Notes under the pieces: model-generated
The model's database searches: none
What the model saw: the letters and a program-made list of their open reading frames with translations, nothing else
Told to the model about the DNA's origin: nothing
Position numbers and translations under genes: made by a program
Shown here: in pieces, positions 3,414 through 36,629 of the stretch
Layout: every line of letters begins with the position of its first letter
Position numbering within the stretch: the stretch's first letter is position 1
Virus genome (UHGV): UHGV-0110762
Reading direction: 5' to 3' (one strand)
Source of the DNA: a virus
DNA: 37,161 nt

Positions 3414-4241
3414 TTAGGCTTTAAAGTTACCGATGAAAGTTTCCACTGATTCACCTTCGAACTTGCTGATCAGCAAATCGCGGAATTCGTTGGCGATCTC
3501 TTCTTCCTGGGCTTCAAGTTGGACGATGCGCAGAACAAAGCAGGGTTCATCGCTGGTCAGCAGGCTGTTACGCAAGCTAAAGCGGCGTTCACCCAGACCT
3601 TCATACGGCACACATTTGAACTCGAACGCCACAGGCATTACGTCTTTGCTGCTTGCTTCAACGCTTTGCATCAGAGATTTTTTACCAGCGAAATCACCAG
3701 TTTCATGGTCCTGCTGTGTTGCTTGCTGAATAGTGATACGACGCACAGCCTGAGCCGCCTGTGAAATCTGCATCGTATTGCCATCAGCATCAAACGCCAG
3801 CAGGTAATCGCTCCAGTCTTCCAGCCATTCCGCGATTTGCTTTTGCTTCAGGCGTTGACCATCGATCTGCAGTAACGCTCGGAACGGGGCGGTTTTCTTC
3901 AGGGTGATTGAAGCAACGTTATCGGCGTGACCTGGATTATCCAGGGTGCCGATGTTGAACACTGAACGGGCGGTCATGTTGTCAGCGTCAATGAAGCAAC
4001 GAGCTGGCTCGCTGGCGCTGGCATAACCTTTAGAATAACGGGCGAAGTCGTCAATACTGGTTGTGGTCATTGCGCCACGAAAGCGGAAACGCTCCAGAGA
4101 AAAACGCTCGAGGCTTTCAACGCCAGTACCCTCTGGCAGTAATGCGGTCGGGCAAGCCAGGTCCTGAATATCATCCAGGTGATAACCGGAAAGAACCAGG
4201 TCTTTGACCTGCTTGAAGGTGCCGCTGTCTAACTGAGACAT
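3414..4241 (-). CDS. YfdQ-like protein (DUF2303 family, function unknown)
   Basis: 275 aa, the size of E. coli CPS-53 YfdQ, and sits between YfdR-like and YfdP-like genes in the same order as in CPS-53 (recalled, not searched). Confidence 0.6.
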   Translation of the reverse strand: MSQLDSGTFKQVKDLVLSGYHLDDIQDLACPTALLPEGTGVESLERFSLERFRFRGAMTTTSIDDFARYSKGYASASEPARCFIDADNMTARSVFNIGTLDNPGHADNVASITLKKTAPFRALLQIDGQRLKQKQIAEWLEDWSDYLLAFDADGNTMQISQAAQAVRRITIQQATQQDHETGDFAGKKSLMQSVEASSKDVMPVAFEFKCVPYEGLGERRFSLRNSLLTSDEPCFVLRIVQLEAQEEEIANEFRDLLISKFEGESVETFIGNFKA

Positions 4242-4297: not shown

Positions 4298-4669
4298 TCA
4301 CTGAGCCGCTTTAAGCTTTCCATCCACCGCGCCGGTGATCCCGAATAGTTGCCCCTGATCTTCCTGCAGTATGGTGAGCTTCCCGCCTTTGTTGACCCAC
4401 ATAGGGGTTTCGGTTGTGTCCTCTTCGGAGGCTTTACCACGAGGTGTCGGGGTGCTGTAGTTCAGCTTGTGCTTGATCTTCACGCGCTTCTCTTCAACGG
4501 AATTACCCATGCGCTCAAAATCAAAGGTGAGGACTACTTTGCCTTTGTTGCCGTTGTTCAGAACGCCAAGCGCGGTGGTATTAAGTGCTGCCGCGATTTT
4601 GTTCATGAACACGCCGGCATCCAGTTCGCCAAGAAAATCTGGCACTACGGTCATGCGGTCATTACTCAT
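4298..4669 (-). CDS. YfdP-like hypothetical protein; ORF track extends to 4855 but the ATG at 4669 (MSNDRMTVV) with GAGGGT RBS is preferred
   Basis: C-terminal 124 aa look protein-like; the N-terminal extension in the ORF track is Cys/Trp/Gly-rich and lacks an RBS. Confidence 0.55.
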   Translation of the reverse strand: MSNDRMTVVPDFLGELDAGVFMNKIAAALNTTALGVLNNGNKGKVVLTFDFERMGNSVEEKRVKIKHKLNYSTPTPRGKASEEDTTETPMWVNKGGKLTILQEDQGQLFGITGAVDGKLKAAQ

Positions 4670-5280
4670 GGTTTTACCCTCGTTAAGGCGGCTGCCACCG
4701 CCGAACTTTCTCCATACACAACAGAGAAGGGCACCTGCATTGGTTGGCGGCTTGAGAGACCGCTTTCTTTTTGCCCGGGTGGATTGGGTTATGAGCCCGT
4801 CGCCCGGTGATGCCCTTGTCTGTTGTGTAAAAAGGGCGGTACCGAGGTAGAACATTATCTTCGTCCCCCTTGCATAAGGTTGAAGACCCTGGTACCGCCA
4901 AGACTACACACAGCATCTGGTACAGCTACTACGGGTTTACCACATCAAAAAGAGCACTACCGCGTTCTGCCGCCCCATCCTGGCTTTTGGTACTGCAACG
5001 GCTGCGAGATGTTTTTTGCATGCCAGCGCTCTTTTGGTTATGGACTCGTCTCTTCCGAGGTGTCACACCTGATCGCCACGCTGGTGAAACGTCTCTGGCT
5101 GCCGTACACGCCTGGCTTGCATATTCCGGCTACCCGCTGGATCTGGATATGTCTTGCAAGGAATCCCCGGACTGCTGCGGCACATGTGCCATATGCCGTA
5201 CTGCAACTGCTGCCTGTCTTTTCACCACATCAGGCTCAGTGGTATTCTTGGAGTTCTCACACAGCCAAGAAGATAAACCT

Positions 5281-5514
5281 ATGAATAACGATATTATTGA
5301 GTTAAGACTCACTGCTATTGAAGCTGCGATTAAGACCATTTCAGCTGCAATATGTGCTAATGAGGGCCCACTATCAGATGACCTGCATAACCAAATACAA
5401 TTATTGCGCGATCAACTGTCAAGCCCAGAAAACACTGTTAAACAGGAAGCCATCACCTATCAAACCATTAAGCTTCTTGATTCTCTTAATTGCGACCCGT
5501 GGGATCCGTTTTAA
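5281..5514 (+). CDS. Small hypothetical protein (77 aa) in AT-rich island of the immunity region
   Basis: ATG at 5281 begins a helical-looking peptide MNNDIIELRLTAIEAAIKTISAAICANEG...; sharp drop in GC content relative to flanks; weak RBS. Confidence 0.3.
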   Translation: MNNDIIELRLTAIEAAIKTISAAICANEGPLSDDLHNQIQLLRDQLSSPENTVKQEAITYQTIKLLDSLNCDPWDPF

Positions 5515-5689
5515 AAAACTTCTCATTGAAGGCCGCCATTTTAGATTTTGAACGAGCCCTTCGTTCGGAATGAAGGGTAAGTTGCATGTCCGATAGAGCG
5601 CTAAAAACGGCAGCATTGAATGCCAGAAACTCCGATTCATCACTGCACTCAGCAGTAATTTTCCCGTTAACAACCAACTCTATCTTCAT
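5486..5689 (-). CDS. Small hypothetical protein (67 aa) convergent with and overlapping the 3' end of the 5281..5514 ORF
   Basis: ATG at 5689 (MKIELVVNGKITAECSDESEF...); immediately downstream (leftward) of the OL-like operator repeats, so it would be the first gene of the leftward early transcript; RBS poor. Confidence 0.25.
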   Translation of the reverse strand: MKIELVVNGKITAECSDESEFLAFNAAVFSALSDMQLTLHSERRARSKSKMAAFNEKFFKTDPTGRN

Positions 5690-5728
5690 TCCTGATGCCC
5701 ACAATGTTCGTTGCTGATGGATTTAATA

Positions 5729-5774
5729 TTAGACATCTTACATTTACAGTCAAGTCTATTTTGTAAGTTTGCTT
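5729..5774. promoter_or_regulatory. OL-like operator pair: two inverted copies of the 15-bp motif also found at OR
   Basis: TTAGACATCTTACAT (5729-5743) and TTGTAAGTTTGCTTA (5760-5774) match the OR motif TTAGCAWTCTTACAT in 13/15 and about 10/15 positions. Confidence 0.45.
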
Positions 5775-5797
5775 ACTATATTTTCACAGGCATAAAA

Positions 5798-5819
5798 AAG
5801 CCCGCATGATCAGCGGGCT
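5798..5819 (-). terminator. Rho-independent terminator downstream of cI (minus strand)
   Basis: Stem AGCCCGC / loop ATGATCA / stem GCGGGCT followed on the minus strand by a TTTTTT run, 18 nt after the cI stop. Confidence 0.6.
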
Positions 5820-5836
5820 TGTAGGAACCAGAGGGG

Positions 5837-6469
5837 CTAAAGGTCAATGATAATTTGTTTAACTATCCCAATTAGATTGGTCTCTTGATTCACCTCAATG
5901 GGTTTAAACGCAGGATTCAGTGGGATTAGGTACGAAAACGGTGGGTCTATCGCCAGCTTTTTTAAAGTTGCCTCACCACCAGATACCGTTTGAGCAACGA
6001 CAATTTTACCGTTTGCCTCATCCACGAAGCCGAACTCTGGTTCAACAATAACAATAGAACCTTCAGGAATACTCAACTCCTGGCTAGAAGTCATTGAATC
6101 TCCCTTAACCCTCAAAGCAAAGGCGGAATCAGAAAGTTTTCGAGTGGTTTTCACTTGTTCATTATTAGGATTTCCAATTACTTCCGTCCAATTACCAGCT
6201 TGCACCCATGATATGAGAGGGACCTCTCTGGCAGACATCAAGTTGATGTTAATGCCATTTTCGATATCGCCTGAACCAAAAACCAACCATTCTGGCGAGC
6301 ACTGAAGGCATTTACACACCAATATCAAGTTCTCACCAGAAAGTTTTGTTAAATCACTTTCCCACTGGGTCACAGCAGACGCGCTTACTCCTGCCCACTC
6401 AGCCACATCGCGCTGGGTAAGTTTTTTCTGCTTTCTTCTAAATCTCAGTCTGCTGCCAACGGTATCCAT
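5837..6469 (-). CDS. cI: CI-like prophage repressor (N-terminal XRE HTH, C-terminal S24 LexA-like peptidase)
   Basis: N-terminal LTQRDVAEWAGVSASAVTQWE HTH; C-terminal ALRVKGDSM...KK Ser-Lys dyad typical of S24 autoproteolytic repressors; divergent from a Cro-like gene. Confidence 0.85.
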   Translation of the reverse strand: MDTVGSRLRFRRKQKKLTQRDVAEWAGVSASAVTQWESDLTKLSGENLILVCKCLQCSPEWLVFGSGDIENGININLMSAREVPLISWVQAGNWTEVIGNPNNEQVKTTRKLSDSAFALRVKGDSMTSSQELSIPEGSIVIVEPEFGFVDEANGKIVVAQTVSGGEATLKKLAIDPPFSYLIPLNPAFKPIEVNQETNLIGIVKQIIIDL

Positions 6470-6484
6470 AAAATCTCCTCGGAA

Positions 6485-6551
6485 TGTACGTTAGCAATCT
6501 TACATTTTATTGACGTAAGTATGCTGTCCATATACGATGTAAGAATGCTAA
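6485..6551. promoter_or_regulatory. OR-like operator/promoter region between cI and cro
   Basis: Inverted 15-bp repeats TTAGCAATCTTACAT (6491-6505) and ATGTAAGAATGCTAA (6537-6551; reverse complement TTAGCATTCTTACAT); TTGACG at 6510-6515 is a candidate -35 for the rightward promoter. Confidence 0.55.
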
Positions 6552-6569: not shown

Positions 6570-6773
6570 ATGCATAAAGGGACAGTCGTCGACTACTACG
6601 GCGGCATTTCTAAAACCGCAGTTGCCTTAGGGGTAACTCACAGTGCCGTATGTCAATGGGGTGAAGTAATCCCAGAAAAACAGGCTCTTTACATTGAAAG
6701 AATTACGAACGGGAAGTTGAAATACGACGCTTCTCTCTACAGCAAACTTAACAATTCTCAACACAAGCAGTAA
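6570..6773 (+). CDS. cro: Cro-like small HTH regulator
   Basis: 67 aa, AAGAGGA RBS, HTH-like ISKTAVALGVTHSAVCQW; divergent from cI across the operator region. Confidence 0.7.
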   Translation: MHKGTVVDYYGGISKTAVALGVTHSAVCQWGEVIPEKQALYIERITNGKLKYDASLYSKLNNSQHKQ

Positions 6774-6796: not shown

Positions 6797-7348
6797 GTGG
6801 GTAATGAACCTAGTTGGAAAGTCGAACGTCAGCCAGCCTGGCTGGTGGTCGCAATAAAAAAAACCATTACCGACCTTCCTGGTGGGTATGCCGAGGCCGC
6901 GGAATGGTTAGGAACTTCAGAGAACGGGTTGTTCAACCGTCTCCGCACTGAGGGCGATCAGATATTCCCGTTGGGTTGGGCGATGGTTCTACAGCGTGCT
7001 GGTGGTTCGACTCATATTGCTGATGCCGTTGCGCGCCATTCTCAAGGCGTATTCGTACCGCTGGCAGATGTTGATGATTTGGATAACGCCGATATTAACC
7101 AGCGCCTGATGGAGTCCATTGAATGGATTGGTCGTCATTCTACCTTTGTGCGAAAGGCTACTGCTGATGGGGTGATTGACGCAGATGAGCGTGCTCAGAT
7201 AGAGGAGAACAGCTACCAGGTGATCGCGAAGTTTCAGGAGCACGTCACGCTGCTTTACCGAGTTTTTTGTGTCGCTGAAAAGAGTGACGCCCGCGAGTGT
7301 GCAGCTCCGGGCGCCTTGGCGAACAACTCTTCGAGTATGGAGAAATAA
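6797..7348 (+). CDS. CII-like / early regulatory protein (tentative functional call)
   Basis: GTG start with AAGGGGG RBS directly after cro; 183 aa; position equals lambda cII; functional assignment is by position and vague family recollection only. Confidence 0.45.
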   Translation: MGNEPSWKVERQPAWLVVAIKKTITDLPGGYAEAAEWLGTSENGLFNRLRTEGDQIFPLGWAMVLQRAGGSTHIADAVARHSQGVFVPLADVDDLDNADINQRLMESIEWIGRHSTFVRKATADGVIDADERAQIEENSYQVIAKFQEHVTLLYRVFCVAEKSDARECAAPGALANNSSSMEK

Positions 7349-34100: not shown

Positions 34101-34208
34101 GGCGAGATTTCTCCCGGAGGTGATGGGACCAGCAGTATTTCAGCCATTCAGTACCATCCCGATAAATATAAGTACGATGACGCCAGCTACCCCGGCGATG
34201 TCTCCTGA
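31116..34208 (+). CDS. Central tail fibre / host specificity protein (J-like), with an N-terminal region resembling a fused gpI-like segment
   Basis: 1030 aa, GTGA overlap with upstream gene; N-terminal about 100 aa contain a hydrophobic stretch (AAPAWLVWTAVAIAVASAAYSIYMM) as in lambda gpI; no separate I-like gene present. Confidence 0.75.
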   Translation: MTIRIYPSRIEGEPLESHQHASTTIADWFTRNVQGWQPDMTHPVALELNGVSIPPNEWSAQIIAPDDDVRLYPVPFGPAAPAWLVWTAVAIAVASAAYSIYMMSTMQTGGASQPGNGDQLELNPAKANMAKLGDPIREIFGRYKVWPDYVVQPVSRFDSADPKKYVTSMFLCVGVGDMALPASAIRIGSTPASAFGSDVSATIYPPGASVAADSRSENWFNSGEVGNTTSGTAGLDLGSTGPQTVSIISDAILVSGNTLSLIAATASDGETEIPAAWVVGTVITVVAPNSYRVANAGGYSVIYGDVAELRPAAGMPVSVTFNESAYDLYIASYAAGVPAVPGVGGSTASITASAAPTTYDFTATPVTFTIGWKGTTYAISLITSYVTMSGLVNTISNQLTGSGLIARDTGGRLQIAEESSPFAGGAISHSALPVSVFGSATVDVTGVASTGGTAAVEANITLAYDSATGKPFTGIPDGVQRIGIGYADGQFRITDIDDQTITVERVVVTQDTSGNDVVTVDPTWPGFTERTLLDAQVTGVNDDYAWLGPFLACPDGETTTAIENNFIFPNGHIQYKKNGDPQSHTVRVLVQYRNAASAGAWSQVVYNFTNKTADGHGYTRRISGLAAAQYEVRVRRTTKIGGARTVNNLYWQAMRSRLSRRPGSYAGVTTLAMTVRTGNRLAAQSDRRVNVTPTRLYNGHASRSISGALYHVLESLGFRPEQIDRAAIDALEQTWWTPRGETFDWATGDSKSALEVLKIITGAGMGYFLLSDGLVSAGREGVKNWTGMITPQETTEELQTAFKAPSQDDYDGVDVTYINGTTWAEETVQCRQPGNSTPVKVEDYRLEGVVDQDRAYRIGMRRLRGYQLQRLQHTTSTEMDALCYQFMDRIILTDDIPGNQTLSCLITEMSWDSTAIIMSVSEPPDWSFPNPRVVIRHQDGRASPLQVPTRIDDYTLRIPYSAALAPEEWEMDSPYIEPPRLLFCSSSRVGYDALVGEISPGGDGTSSISAIQYHPDKYKYDDASYPGDVS

Positions 34209-34227
34209 AAACACCCTTAATTGCATA

Positions 34228-34249
34228 ACCCGCTCCGGCGGGTTTTTTT
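34228..34249 (+). terminator. Rho-independent terminator between J-like gene and tail spike gene
   Basis: ACCCGC-TCCG-GCGGGT hairpin followed by TTTTTTT. Confidence 0.6.
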
Positions 34250-34265
34250 ATGCTGGAGAAATACA

Positions 34266-36629
34266 ATGGCACCATGCAACACTCTTAACCCGCCGGGTTC
34301 AACTGACCCACGCGATTTACGTGATAACGCTCAGAACCTGGATCAGGCGGTAAATGGAATTACCAACAAAACATGGACCGACAGGCTGGGTCGGATACGT
34401 AAATCGTGGAGTGGAATGGAATATGACTTCAATAATCAGATAGCTGATCAGGAAACGCGATTTCGCACCTTTATTGAAAATGCGGGCTATGACGTAATTG
34501 GAGATTATGAAGACGGCATAATTACTGTCTCTGAATACAATGAGCTGATTCGTTATGACGGTGAATTCTATAAGCTGTCTGCTGGTACCAAACCACCTTA
34601 TAAAACAGCCGGGACAACAAAAACTTCGTGGGATACAACTGACTCTTCCCATTTTGTCTCCGTAGGCGATGCCTCTCTTCGGCAGTTAATTCTCAGTGCT
34701 GCGGCACCATTATTTCAGGGACATATTAAAACCCTGGATTACTGGGCAGCAAAAATGCATGCCGGAGAGACGGTTATTATTACCAGCATAGCCGATTCGA
34801 CCGGTGATGGTAATGGCTCCACGGGGTGGACGGCAAACCCCACCACGCCTGTAACTGGCTTCCCGTGGGCCACTGCACCTCTGGCCAACAGTGACCATAA
34901 CGCAGAAGCGCCCAATGCATGGTGTGCCAGACTGCAGACAATCCTTCGGCAGTACCATCGTAACAACAACATTAGCGTTTATAACGCTGGGTATTCCGGC
35001 CAGCAAATGCAGAACGGCTGGGTAAATTATTACTTTGATAAAATCGTCCTGCAAAACCCCTATATTCCTTCTAACCCGGATATCGTGATCATCAGCTTCG
35101 GGCTGAACGATATTACAGACGCAGGAAATAAAATCACCGAGCATATCGCGCAAACAATCGAGGTCATGAAGAAGGTTATCGCAGCCGGCGCCACACCCGT
35201 ACTAACGACCTGCGATGCAAACTGGCGCTCCTACAACGGCTGGAACTCTGGTACTTCCGGGCGTGACAATGAAGAAGCTGCAGCCCAGATCGATGCCGCG
35301 AAAAAATACATGGCGGAGGTGCTGGGGGTGTCCATTATCGATCAGGACTTCATGCAAAAAACATGGATGTCCAAAAACAGCGATTACTCCAACCAGTATG
35401 AACTCCAGCCTGACGGCCTGCACTGGGGGGACGTTGGCCATGCGATGAAAGCGTCCTTTGTCGCTCAGTCGTTTATGCCTGACATTCTTCGCTGCTACGG
35501 TACTGATATTGAGCGTATCTGCTGGATGGACAGCCGGATGCGATATTCGAAGGACTACAATTCCAGCTGGGTTCCTGATACGGGGTCGGAGGGATATAAA
35601 TACTCGCGGTTCCCGCGGATCTGGTACATCCAGGCCGCAGACTATGTGGCGAGCGAGGTTATCTTTGACTTCTTCGTGTGGAGCGAGGGTAATCAGGATT
35701 CCCTGATATACCGCAATTTTGGCAACAGCAATATTGGATCTACATATGCAGCCGACCAGCTGCCGCGCGTGAGGGTCTTTTCACTCGGTAACTCTTCCGC
35801 CTATTACGATAAAGAGCTTCCGGACACCGGAGAGAACGAAGCAGCCATCAACGCGACAGACCGTCCATTCTATCTTACCAAGTTGAAATACGGGCTTAAC
35901 CGTATCCAGGTGATCGCGCCATCGGCGACAGTTCTCGGGGCATTCTGGGGCGGCTGGTTTGAGTTCAATCCGTTCTGGAAGGCCAGGGACACCTTTGGCT
36001 ACGTGAACAACTACGGCGCGCCAAATTATATTCAGGTGAATGCGCTGGAGAAAACCGGGCCTCTCGATTTCCGCTTCGAGGCGGATGCCACAAATAACCG
36101 CGTGGCGTTCATGAATCCTGAGATGTTTGACGGCACAAACTGCGCTGATATTGGACAGGTAGGTGACAAAGTTGAAATCCTGGTTGAGGGCTTCTTCGAC
36201 ACGGATACGGGTTTTCTTTTCTTTGGCGGGAAGTCCCTCAACCGAAACTCGGGAGCTGCAGATAATTATCAGGAGGATAATTGCCTGCTTTTGTATGCCA
36301 CGTCGAAAACATTTAACCTGCTACAGCTGCGCTATCCATACCAGGGTTCCGCTCCCTATCCTCAGATCCAGGCCGGGATAGACGATGTTTATAGTCCCAC
36401 CGATAGGGCAAGAAAGTTCCTCATCCGCTGCGAAAAAACCTCGCCTACAACTCAGACCGTTAAGGTCTACGACGGGTGGGAGACTATCGACACCCCTGTC
36501 CTGAACTATACGGGAGACTGGACGCAGGGGAAGTTCTGCGGCGGTGGGATTATTGGCGGAGTTTACGCAACGAGAAACATTGCCAGGACGGTGCGGATCA
36601 CTCAGTTGTTGATTCGTAAATTCAAATAA
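34266..36629 (+). CDS. Tail spike / side tail fibre with SGNH (GDSL-like) hydrolase domain, probable receptor-modifying esterase
   Basis: ATG 34266 after GGAGA; conserved tail-fibre N-terminus (NTLNPPGSTDPRDLRDNAQNLDQAVNGI); central IADSTGDG (block I-like) and ISFGLNDITD (GxND block) consistent with SGNH esterases. Confidence 0.65.
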   Translation: MAPCNTLNPPGSTDPRDLRDNAQNLDQAVNGITNKTWTDRLGRIRKSWSGMEYDFNNQIADQETRFRTFIENAGYDVIGDYEDGIITVSEYNELIRYDGEFYKLSAGTKPPYKTAGTTKTSWDTTDSSHFVSVGDASLRQLILSAAAPLFQGHIKTLDYWAAKMHAGETVIITSIADSTGDGNGSTGWTANPTTPVTGFPWATAPLANSDHNAEAPNAWCARLQTILRQYHRNNNISVYNAGYSGQQMQNGWVNYYFDKIVLQNPYIPSNPDIVIISFGLNDITDAGNKITEHIAQTIEVMKKVIAAGATPVLTTCDANWRSYNGWNSGTSGRDNEEAAAQIDAAKKYMAEVLGVSIIDQDFMQKTWMSKNSDYSNQYELQPDGLHWGDVGHAMKASFVAQSFMPDILRCYGTDIERICWMDSRMRYSKDYNSSWVPDTGSEGYKYSRFPRIWYIQAADYVASEVIFDFFVWSEGNQDSLIYRNFGNSNIGSTYAADQLPRVRVFSLGNSSAYYDKELPDTGENEAAINATDRPFYLTKLKYGLNRIQVIAPSATVLGAFWGGWFEFNPFWKARDTFGYVNNYGAPNYIQVNALEKTGPLDFRFEADATNNRVAFMNPEMFDGTNCADIGQVGDKVEILVEGFFDTDTGFLFFGGKSLNRNSGAADNYQEDNCLLLYATSKTFNLLQLRYPYQGSAPYPQIQAGIDDVYSPTDRARKFLIRCEKTSPTTQTVKVYDGWETIDTPVLNYTGDWTQGKFCGGGIIGGVYATRNIARTVRITQLLIRKFK

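Follow-up and report, generated by a model that had tools for sequence, protein, structure and literature searches.

A conserved structured RNA and a convergent gene pair in the early-left leader of a lambdoid prophage lacking N

The early-left leader and its core RNA

The window analyzed here is the whole 37,161-nucleotide (nt) stretch of the UHGV virus genome UHGV-0110762, and coordinates are window positions throughout. It carries a lambdoid immunity region with a normal OL/pL arrangement, and transcription from pL runs on the minus strand (Table 1). The segment between a YfdP-like gene and cI had been described in the original prediction as a GC-rich stretch poor in open reading frames (ORFs), followed by an AT-rich island with two small overlapping genes. 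This segment is the transcribed early-left (pL) operon leader of a lambdoid prophage without N, and it is a mosaic of independently exchangeable modules. One module, of about 165 nt and here called the core RNA, belongs to a widespread family of structured RNAs for which neither Rfam nor the literature searched gave a match. The gene pair, ORF67 and ORF77, is a separate moron (inserted accessory gene unit).

The early-left genes include homologs of YfdP (phrog_204), YfdQ (DUF2303) and the 5'-deoxynucleotidase YfbR, along with several genes that have no assigned role. The YfbR-like gene is the one named yfbR in the paper on phage LLS (PMC12315714). We scanned ORF67, ORF77 and three YfdP/Q/R-like genes against Pfam and PHROG and six further left-operon ORFs against the PHROGs only, and no N-type antiterminator family was matched. 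The absence of a recognizable N-like antiterminator, as originally predicted, was thus borne out.

Table 1. Features of the early-left leader and adjoining immunity region (nt, nucleotides; bp, base pairs; aa, amino acids; dN/dS, ratio of nonsynonymous to synonymous substitution rates)
Feature	Position	Strand	Basis
YfdP-like gene, first long early-left gene	4301-4672	-	phrog_204, E 5e-42 (124-aa version)
Terminator-like long hairpin, GGCGGUACC...GGUACCGCC then CUUUUU	4824-4912	-	fold z = -2.3, inverted repeat I1
Domain 2, long helix	4940-5043	-	inverted repeat I2, direct repeat D2, fold
Core structured RNA, about 165 nt	5044-5207	-	conservation borders, covariation, covariance model
P5, loop GAAGAGA	5060-5044	-	covariation
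Pseudoknot, CACC in P4 loop with GGUG	5086-5083 with 5069-5066	-	covariation
P4	5092-5078	-	covariation
P3, variable hairpin	5113-5093	-	alignment
Junction helix GCC/GGC	5116-5114 with 5077-5075	-	RNAalifold
Invariant junction GGAAUGUGCAAG	5127-5116	-	alignment
P2, three-part stem	5174-5127	-	covariation
P1, 9 bp, invariant UGGCACA top	5198-5178	-	covariation
Gene cassette, ORF67 and ORF77 convergent	5211-5719	both	homology span to other prophages
ORF77 upstream module, promoter-like TTCACC-N16-TGgTATTCT (extended -10) and 5' untranslated region	5211-5280	+	conservation, sequence reading
ORF77, small helical protein, transcribed towards cI, 77 aa	5281-5514	+	phrog_28250, dN/dS, homologs
ORF67, first gene of the pL transcript, 67 aa	5486-5689	-	dN/dS, homologs, AlphaFold
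OL-like operators and pL-like promoter	5725-5775	-	promoter scan, operator repeat
Intrinsic terminator of the cI transcript, AAGCCCGC...GCGGGCTT then TTTTAT	5798-5820	-	terminator scan
cI repressor gene, LexA/S24 family	5837-6469	-	ORF list and family scan
cro, P22-Cro type	6570-6773	+	ORF list and PHROG/Pfam
CII-like gene	6797-7348	+	ORF list and PHROG/Pfam

In a BLAST search of phage records, 5045-5207 recurs in many temperate phages, where it is mostly unannotated or covered by hypothetical protein genes of doubtful standing. In IMG/VR a pattern scan found at least 120 loci, and a scan of one genome per species found 24 enterobacterial loci after a profile check. The latter are in Escherichia, Citrobacter, Klebsiella, Kosakonia, Phytobacter, Enterobacter, Kluyvera, Erwinia and others. 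Viral and genome contigs taken together have at least about 150 copies. The borders of the module are sharp: the number of related sequences covering the window rises from 46 to 104 at 5045 and falls from 114 to 26 at 5210.

We aligned 76 sequences (pairwise less than 97% identical) with MAFFT, without fitting them to any structure. Across this alignment the proposed helices were paired in 93.0% of cells, compared with 25.9-46.2% when the partners were slid by 1-3 columns. Compensatory changes, altering both sides of a pair, were seen in 16 pairs and 160 cells; with slid partners the counts were 5-9 pairs and 10-31 cells. The observed values were not attained in any of 500 shuffles. RNAalifold independently found P1, P2, P4 and P5 and added the junction helix. 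The pseudoknot is unbroken in 75 of the 76 sequences, with a C-G pair changed to A-U in three of them. The fold comprises four covarying helices, one variable hairpin and an H-type pseudoknot; P3 is called only a variable hairpin because no single register suits all subgroups. Since G-U combinations outnumber A-C (250 versus 32), we assign the function to the minus strand of the window, the direction of pL. Reading the helices on the other strand lowers the pairing from 95.8% to 87.0%. Invariant unpaired stretches are the top of P1 (UGGCACA), AGCGG, GGAAUGUGCAAG, GGCGAU and the GAAGAGA loop, a pattern suggesting that they may be recognized by one conserved partner.

Taken as a whole, there is very little doubt that the structure of the core RNA is real, under selection and formed by the minus strand. 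It could be asked whether the conservation instead reflects an element of the DNA, such as a recombination boundary or a protein-binding site, as the sharp mosaic borders, a palindrome within P1 and a Chi octamer inside P4 in one subgroup might suggest. The compensatory changes in 16 helix pairs speak against this, and the strand-specific excess of G-U over A-C is unexpected for duplex DNA, which leaves such an element hardly credible. A coding role was rejected: the loops of P2 and P3 differ by indels of 1, 2 and 5 nt among relatives, and the changes are compensatory. The hypothetical protein mEp390_036 (L004 2677-2919) is a translation of the structured RNA and a probable misannotation, as are the coding sequences called over the core match in 733R5, BUCT554 and vB_VIPKPNMC05. 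The annotations of several published phage genomes, in which hypothetical protein genes are drawn over the core RNA, can be corrected in this way.

Two further contacts were considered and dropped. Pairing of CCUUG in the P2 loop with CAAG in the junction, a second pseudoknot, is unsupported (70% paired, zero covariation), and a kissing contact between the P2 and P5 loops showed no covariation by eye. The 733R5/KPC2phi6.3 subgroup (L002/L003) has the Chi octamer GCTGGTGG on the plus strand of the P4/pseudoknot loop, where the window reads GCTGGTGA (5083-5090, plus strand).

A covariance model built from the 76-sequence alignment found a single copy in the window (167 bits, E 6e-49) and none in HK022, HK639, SfII or the loci with the cassette only. 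Rfam 15 gave no family at gathering score anywhere in the window; within 4780-5300 only chance-level matches, to microRNA and small nucleolar RNA families, and a sub-threshold match to DicF (below) appeared up to E 10. The literature on put and HK639, on the mEp phages and on epsilon15, together with searches for the literal invariant motifs, held no description of the core RNA, King et al. 2011 on new antiterminator RNAs lying outside this coverage. Folded singly, 4856-5290 and the core alone have ordinary energies (z = +0.5, -0.2 and -0.04), and the structure is therefore visible only through comparative data. One phage contig, L009 (IMGVR_UViG_2791355294_000005), has two core copies on the same strand, at 3998-4161 and 4805-4971, 810 nt apart.

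These results change how the stretch 4856-5280 is to be read. A covariance search for structured RNA had been suggested for it, and this proved decisive. The stretch had been treated as filler between genes; it holds the conserved structured RNA, and the small ORFs beside it are genuine, as had been supposed. Its GC content of 0.532 is close to the window mean of 0.529 and is high only by contrast with the AT-rich island. It is noncoding as predicted, which follows from the comparative data and not from ORF length, since long mechanical ORFs of 153 and 214 aa do exist there. Placing the left border at 4856 was an artefact: that position is set by the longest ORF of the YfdP-like gene, whose likely start is ATG 4672.

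The leader beyond the core and the settings of its copies

Downstream of the core the leader continues with domain 2, whose 5' strand begins 5-7 nt after P5 and whose 3' strand is the boxA-like AGUGCUCUUUUUGAUGUGG. Within domain 2 lies a diverged copy of the P1 flank (GTACTGCAAC.GCTGC); diverged repeats of this flank are present in the window. Among relatives this bracket helix spans 65-650 nt, encloses variable inserts and is kept by compensatory changes (GG/CC, AA/UU, GA/UC). The motif of its 3' strand, AGUGCUCUUUYYGWUGUG, was found 53 times in the loci examined, always on the strand of the core and never on the opposite one. It resembles boxA followed by a boxC-like GUGUG. The boxA-like motif of the window (4946-4958, minus strand) lies in the helix, with P1-like hairpins nearby. 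A perfect rrn boxA, UGCUCUUUAACAA (TTGCTCTTTAACAATC), is found 35 nt after the core in L043 (IMGVR_UViG_3300011603_000019), the sole such relative, and copies of the epsilon15 type have GAGUGCGCUUUCAG 11 nt before P1. A GCGGTAG in domain 2 that resembles the ops/RfaH element was dropped, not being conserved among relatives.

The terminator-like hairpin that follows is a candidate for tL, and the same hairpin module occurs in SfII, L163, L144, L147 and L132. Beyond it the 185-aa ORF at 4298-4855 overstates the YfdP-like gene: the extra 183 nt (4673-4855) are conserved leader, and the most likely start is ATG 4672, with GAGGG as a Shine-Dalgarno sequence. The prophage of Escherichia coli VREC0761 (L171, NZ_LR536430.1) also has 4682-5045, at 97.5% identity, and there it precedes a different gene, rdgC. 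Because of this conservation and the Shine-Dalgarno sequence at ATG 4672, we take the leader to be untranslated from 5485 to 4673 (813 nt). In the leader RNA, G is in excess over C.

To place the core in other phages, we examined the 151 copies with at least 300 nt of upstream sequence among the matches listed, checking the upstream ORFs with Pfam. A cI-type repressor homolog lies upstream on the same strand in 98 of these and on the opposite strand in none. In 61 of the 98, the cI homolog ends 100-199 nt upstream, with space only for the cI terminator, the operators and pL. Small morons intervene in the remaining cI-linked copies, as in the window. Another 45 of the 151 diverge from a portal gene 300-600 nt away, an arrangement found in podoviruses of the epsilon15/SPN1S type and in a Klebsiella phage. 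In 733R5, pL is predicted about 50 nt upstream of P1. The genes downstream of the core are varied, mostly have no assigned role, and none is N-like.

Intrinsic terminators on the strand of the RNA stand between it and the cargo gene in both SPN1S and epsilon15. The three terminator-like sites of SPN1S are all on the strand that encodes the RNA, and the opposite strand has none. Epsilon15 keeps only the 5' half of the RNA, which leads directly to an intrinsic terminator and then to a gene preceded by a ribosome-binding site; this truncated form amounts to a discrete RNA of about 190 nt. In the epsilon15 record a repressor site is annotated upstream, and the element itself bears an annotated RNase III site. 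In the Klebsiella phage ST512-KPC3phi13.3 (L157), a tRNA-Arg gene (3847-3920) directly follows the core on the same strand, and then come a terminator hairpin of the CUUUUUAC type and a DUF2829 gene.

The VREC0761 prophage and that of the window form a natural presence/absence pair for the core. The two are 99.9% identical over 5211-5900, and VREC0761 lacks the core exactly: 5046-5210 of the window is replaced by 56 nt (L171 1698-1753). The replacement matches an alternative 3' module of cores of the L014/L111 type.

The convergent gene pair and the immunity region

Between the core and pL lies the cassette of ORF67 and ORF77. Here the original prediction fared well. The island 5281-5704 is indeed AT-rich (GC 0.42, in the lowest 5% of 425-nt windows), the two genes overlap at their 3' ends by 29 nt (5486-5514), and ORF67 is the first gene after pL. 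Other prophages share the cassette from 5211 as far as 5690 or 5719, a span that reaches from the upstream module of ORF77 to approximately the start of pL transcription; the predicted +1 is at about 5719, and the homology to L159 stops at 5719, about the same point.

In a codon-level comparison of four diverged copies, dN/dS was 0.02-0.10 for ORF77 and 0.14-0.25 for ORF67, versus 0.97-7.6 in five other reading frames tested across the two regions. Because these ratios are far below those of the other frames, as expected under purifying selection, both are real genes, as had been predicted, and deserve names. Protein searches yielded 17 full-length homologs of ORF67 (72-99% identity) and full-length homologs of ORF77 (75-100% identity); neither was matched by tblastn against the phage records. 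ORF77 belongs to phrog_28250 (E 2.9e-39, full length), a family with no assigned function, and is annotated in RefSeq as the hypothetical protein WP_001058060.1 of E. coli VREC0761, where ORF67 has no annotation. ORF67 carries a conserved internal ERRxRxKxKM motif and is predicted by AlphaFold to form a β-hairpin and one long helix (predicted local distance difference test, pLDDT, 83). For ORF77 three helices are predicted with low confidence (pLDDT 61), and the fold search was restricted to ORF67 because of this weak model. It gave nothing, and neither protein had a significant match in Pfam, NCBIfam, PADLOC or a sequence search of the PDB.

The two genes occur together, convergent and overlapping, in every contig examined that spans both (the cassette homologs checked were L159-L168), and they adjoin at least three different types of repressor and cro, the Cro being of the PF09048 or P22_Cro kind. 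The module upstream of ORF77 is common to SfII, SfV, Rac-SA53 and Klebsiella phages. Its extended -10 is a reading of the sequence, as the promoter scan made no call in 5211-5280; we infer that ORF77 has a promoter-like module of its own. Plausibly, ORF77 would be expressed in the lysogen and ORF67 only upon derepression, and the convergent overlap would couple both. SfII has an unrelated convergent, overlapping pair at the same map position (L169 2529-2930), behind ORF77's promoter-like module. It consists of the annotated plus-strand SfII_36 and an unannotated 68-aa minus-strand ORF (2724-2930) that begins with the arginine-rich MTARRPREEK.

The pair had been proposed to be a sense/antisense-regulated toxin-antitoxin or superinfection-exclusion module. 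Several features would fit: both genes are under purifying selection and conserved as a convergent, overlapping unit beside different repressors, ORF77 has its own conserved promoter-like upstream module, an analogous pair of unrelated small ORFs occupies the same site in SfII, and the AT-rich island looks like a moron. We nonetheless consider the proposal rather unlikely. Neither protein resembles a known toxin, antitoxin or defense family, so that positive support is absent, the convergent layout is unusual for type II systems, and neither sequence, as read, has a hydrophobic helix like those of type I toxins. The rexAB and sieB morons of lambdoid phages offer a general comparison. Like them, the cassette is AT-rich, mosaic-bounded and beside cI, and one of its genes has its own promoter-like module; unlike them, it has a convergent, overlapping layout and no homology to Rex, SieB or defense families.

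The promoter scan placed a pL-like promoter, TTGACT-16-TAATAT, at 5753-5726 on the minus strand (-35 at 5753-5748, -10 at 5731-5726). It is overlapped by a 17-nt operator-like repeat (5729-5745) with copies between cI and cro, one at 6491-6507 and one inverted at 6537-6551, in agreement with the predicted OL-like operators. A sub-threshold Rfam match to Trp_leader (25.8 bits versus a threshold of 41) is explained by the hairpin of the cI terminator.

Possible roles of the core RNA

Many lambdoid phages have no recognizable N protein with which to pass early terminators and long untranslated leaders, and RNA-only antitermination is so far a very small family of ten put sequences. The core, well defined, phylogenetically supported and placed in just such a leader, with well over 100 distinct copies, is a concrete and testable candidate. 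We favor a cis-acting antitermination or anti-Rho leader, with a probability of roughly 0.35, because the core has the map position of putL in HK022 and HK639 and because a put-like mechanism was suggested for LLS, a related phage without N (PMC12315714). Also consistent with a role in cis are the absence of the N family from our scans, the 813 untranslated nt of a leader rich in G relative to C, the terminator-like hairpin between the RNA and yfdP, and the intrinsic terminators ahead of the cargo gene in SPN1S and epsilon15. A leader with more G than C is itself unfavorable for Rho. The core may thus help RNA polymerase to read through a long untranslated leader. The nascent RNA would fold just behind RNA polymerase and act in cis on the elongation complex, either by itself, in the manner of HK022 put, or together with the Nus factors of the host by way of the boxA-like motif. 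Transcription from pL would thereby resist Rho in the untranslated, G-over-C leader and continue past the tL hairpin to yfdP and the later genes. The RNA of epsilon15-like phages would have the same role, there ahead of a short cargo unit that lies behind an intrinsic terminator. The boxA-like motif and the Nus dependence of the mEp collection suggest the Nus-dependent variant; that collection has been described as Nus-dependent (PMC11893012), and mEp390, not named there, is linked to it by name only.

Several points weigh against antitermination in cis. The function of the core is entirely inferred. Sense-strand terminator-like sites are not enriched downstream of the core (106 versus 105 and 87 versus 100 in two home-made scans), and 733R5 has no canonical terminator within about 1.6 kb downstream. 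The core appears dispensable or replaceable in VREC0761, since domain 2 and the tL hairpin are kept there while the core is exactly absent. The single copy that the covariance model found in the window leaves the pR operon without one. For the very short unit downstream in epsilon15-like phages, a processive antiterminator seems more than is needed. Only about one-third of the copies have the boxA-like motif, and its bases are paired within a stem; no similarity to put in sequence or structure was seen. Lastly, the VREC0761 polymorphism, the autonomous movement of the core and the bracket helix suit an RNA acting in trans almost as well.

Such an RNA would be an autonomous early noncoding RNA made from a repressor-controlled promoter (pL or another), excised at the following helix, for example by RNase III, and acting in trans as a regulator, as a decoy that engages a conserved host factor, or in immunity or anti-immunity. 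We regard this as possible but tentative. The module is sharply bordered, moves independently of the cargo, is present in two unrelated phage groups and differs in presence between near-identical prophages. The conserved helix that opens 5-7 nt past the core, with a span of 65-650 nt before it closes, resembles a processing stem, epsilon15 has the RNase III annotation and a truncated form ending at an intrinsic terminator, and the invariant loop and junction sequences would suit recognition by a single conserved partner. However, most copies have no terminator of their own, the RNase III site of epsilon15 is an annotation and not an experiment, no target complementarity was identified, no systematic search having been made, and the strict promoter-proximal site and co-orientation with downstream genes suit a role in cis equally. 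If the core is such a processed RNA, it would be a widespread phage noncoding RNA directed at a host target. The C4 RNA of P1 and P7 and the CI RNA of P4 are likewise structured and processed from the leader of a repressor-controlled phage operon, a setting like that of the core; they differ from it in size and fold, and for the core neither an Rfam match nor a complementary target was identified.

The several helices, the pseudoknot and the invariant junction nucleotides in a 5' leader, with a terminator downstream in SPN1S and epsilon15, might also point to a ligand-sensing riboswitch or a self-cleaving ribozyme. This we consider improbable, as no Rfam family of either kind was matched, P5 lacks a U run and the following helix spans up to 650 nt, so that no conserved expression platform is apparent, and the downstream genes have no common metabolic theme. 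Less probable still is that ORF67 is a small N-like antiterminator whose ERRARSKSK binds the P1-like hairpins, the boxA-like motifs completing nut-like sites. ORF67 is the gene nearest pL, where lambda has N, its basic motif is conserved, and boxA-like motifs adjoin P1-like hairpins. Yet more than 100 phages have the core and no ORF67, and L159-L168 have ORF67 and no core. The basic motif of ORF67 lies inside the protein and not at its N terminus, Pfam and PHROG matched no N family, and the invariant P1 argues for a conserved host partner.

Within the favored reading of a leader acting in cis, the closest known system is put. The hallmark of put is the factor-independent suppression of pausing and termination through the zinc-binding domain of the RNA polymerase β' subunit. 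Like the core, the putL and putR of HK022 and the putL-like RNA of HK639 are structured, portable and operon-oriented, and lie just past the early-left promoter in phages without N. HK639 has a single putL-like RNA, on the left, annotated at 34187-34312, the same map position as the core. A put RNA is about 70 nt with two stem-loops (PMC9378689), whereas the core is about 165 nt with five helices and a pseudoknot and occurs also in epsilon15-like podoviruses. An nhmmer profile gave no match in the HK022 immunity region, and the covariance model gave none in HK022 or HK639. The core thus resembles put in position, close behind an early promoter of a phage without N, and probably in logic, and is not a member of the put family. 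It is conceivable, though we hold it doubtful, that the core is the founding member of a new RNA-only class of leaders that reprogram the elongation complex independently of protein and are unrelated to put. Equally tentative is the corollary that this second, independently evolved system is common to lambdoid siphoviruses without N and epsilon15-like podoviruses of the Enterobacteriaceae.

Some likeness to lambda N/nut and rrn boxA is also seen, as the leader has a boxA-like GUGCUCUUU followed by a GUGUG-type motif and one relative has the perfect rrn boxA. In contrast to nut, no N protein was found, P1 is not of the boxB type, and the boxA-like motif is the 3' strand of a helix instead of being single-stranded. 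A smaller resemblance concerns the candidate tL hairpin, for which Rfam reported a sub-threshold match to DicF (RF00039; 4834-4912, minus strand; 16.6 bits versus a gathering score of 48, E 0.17). The loop is 51 nt here and 23 nt in DicF of the Qin prophage, and the 5' seed of DicF is not conserved here. The two share the stem GGCGGUA/UACCGCC and the U run of the DicF terminator, and each belongs to a lambdoid element, within its leader or early-left operon.

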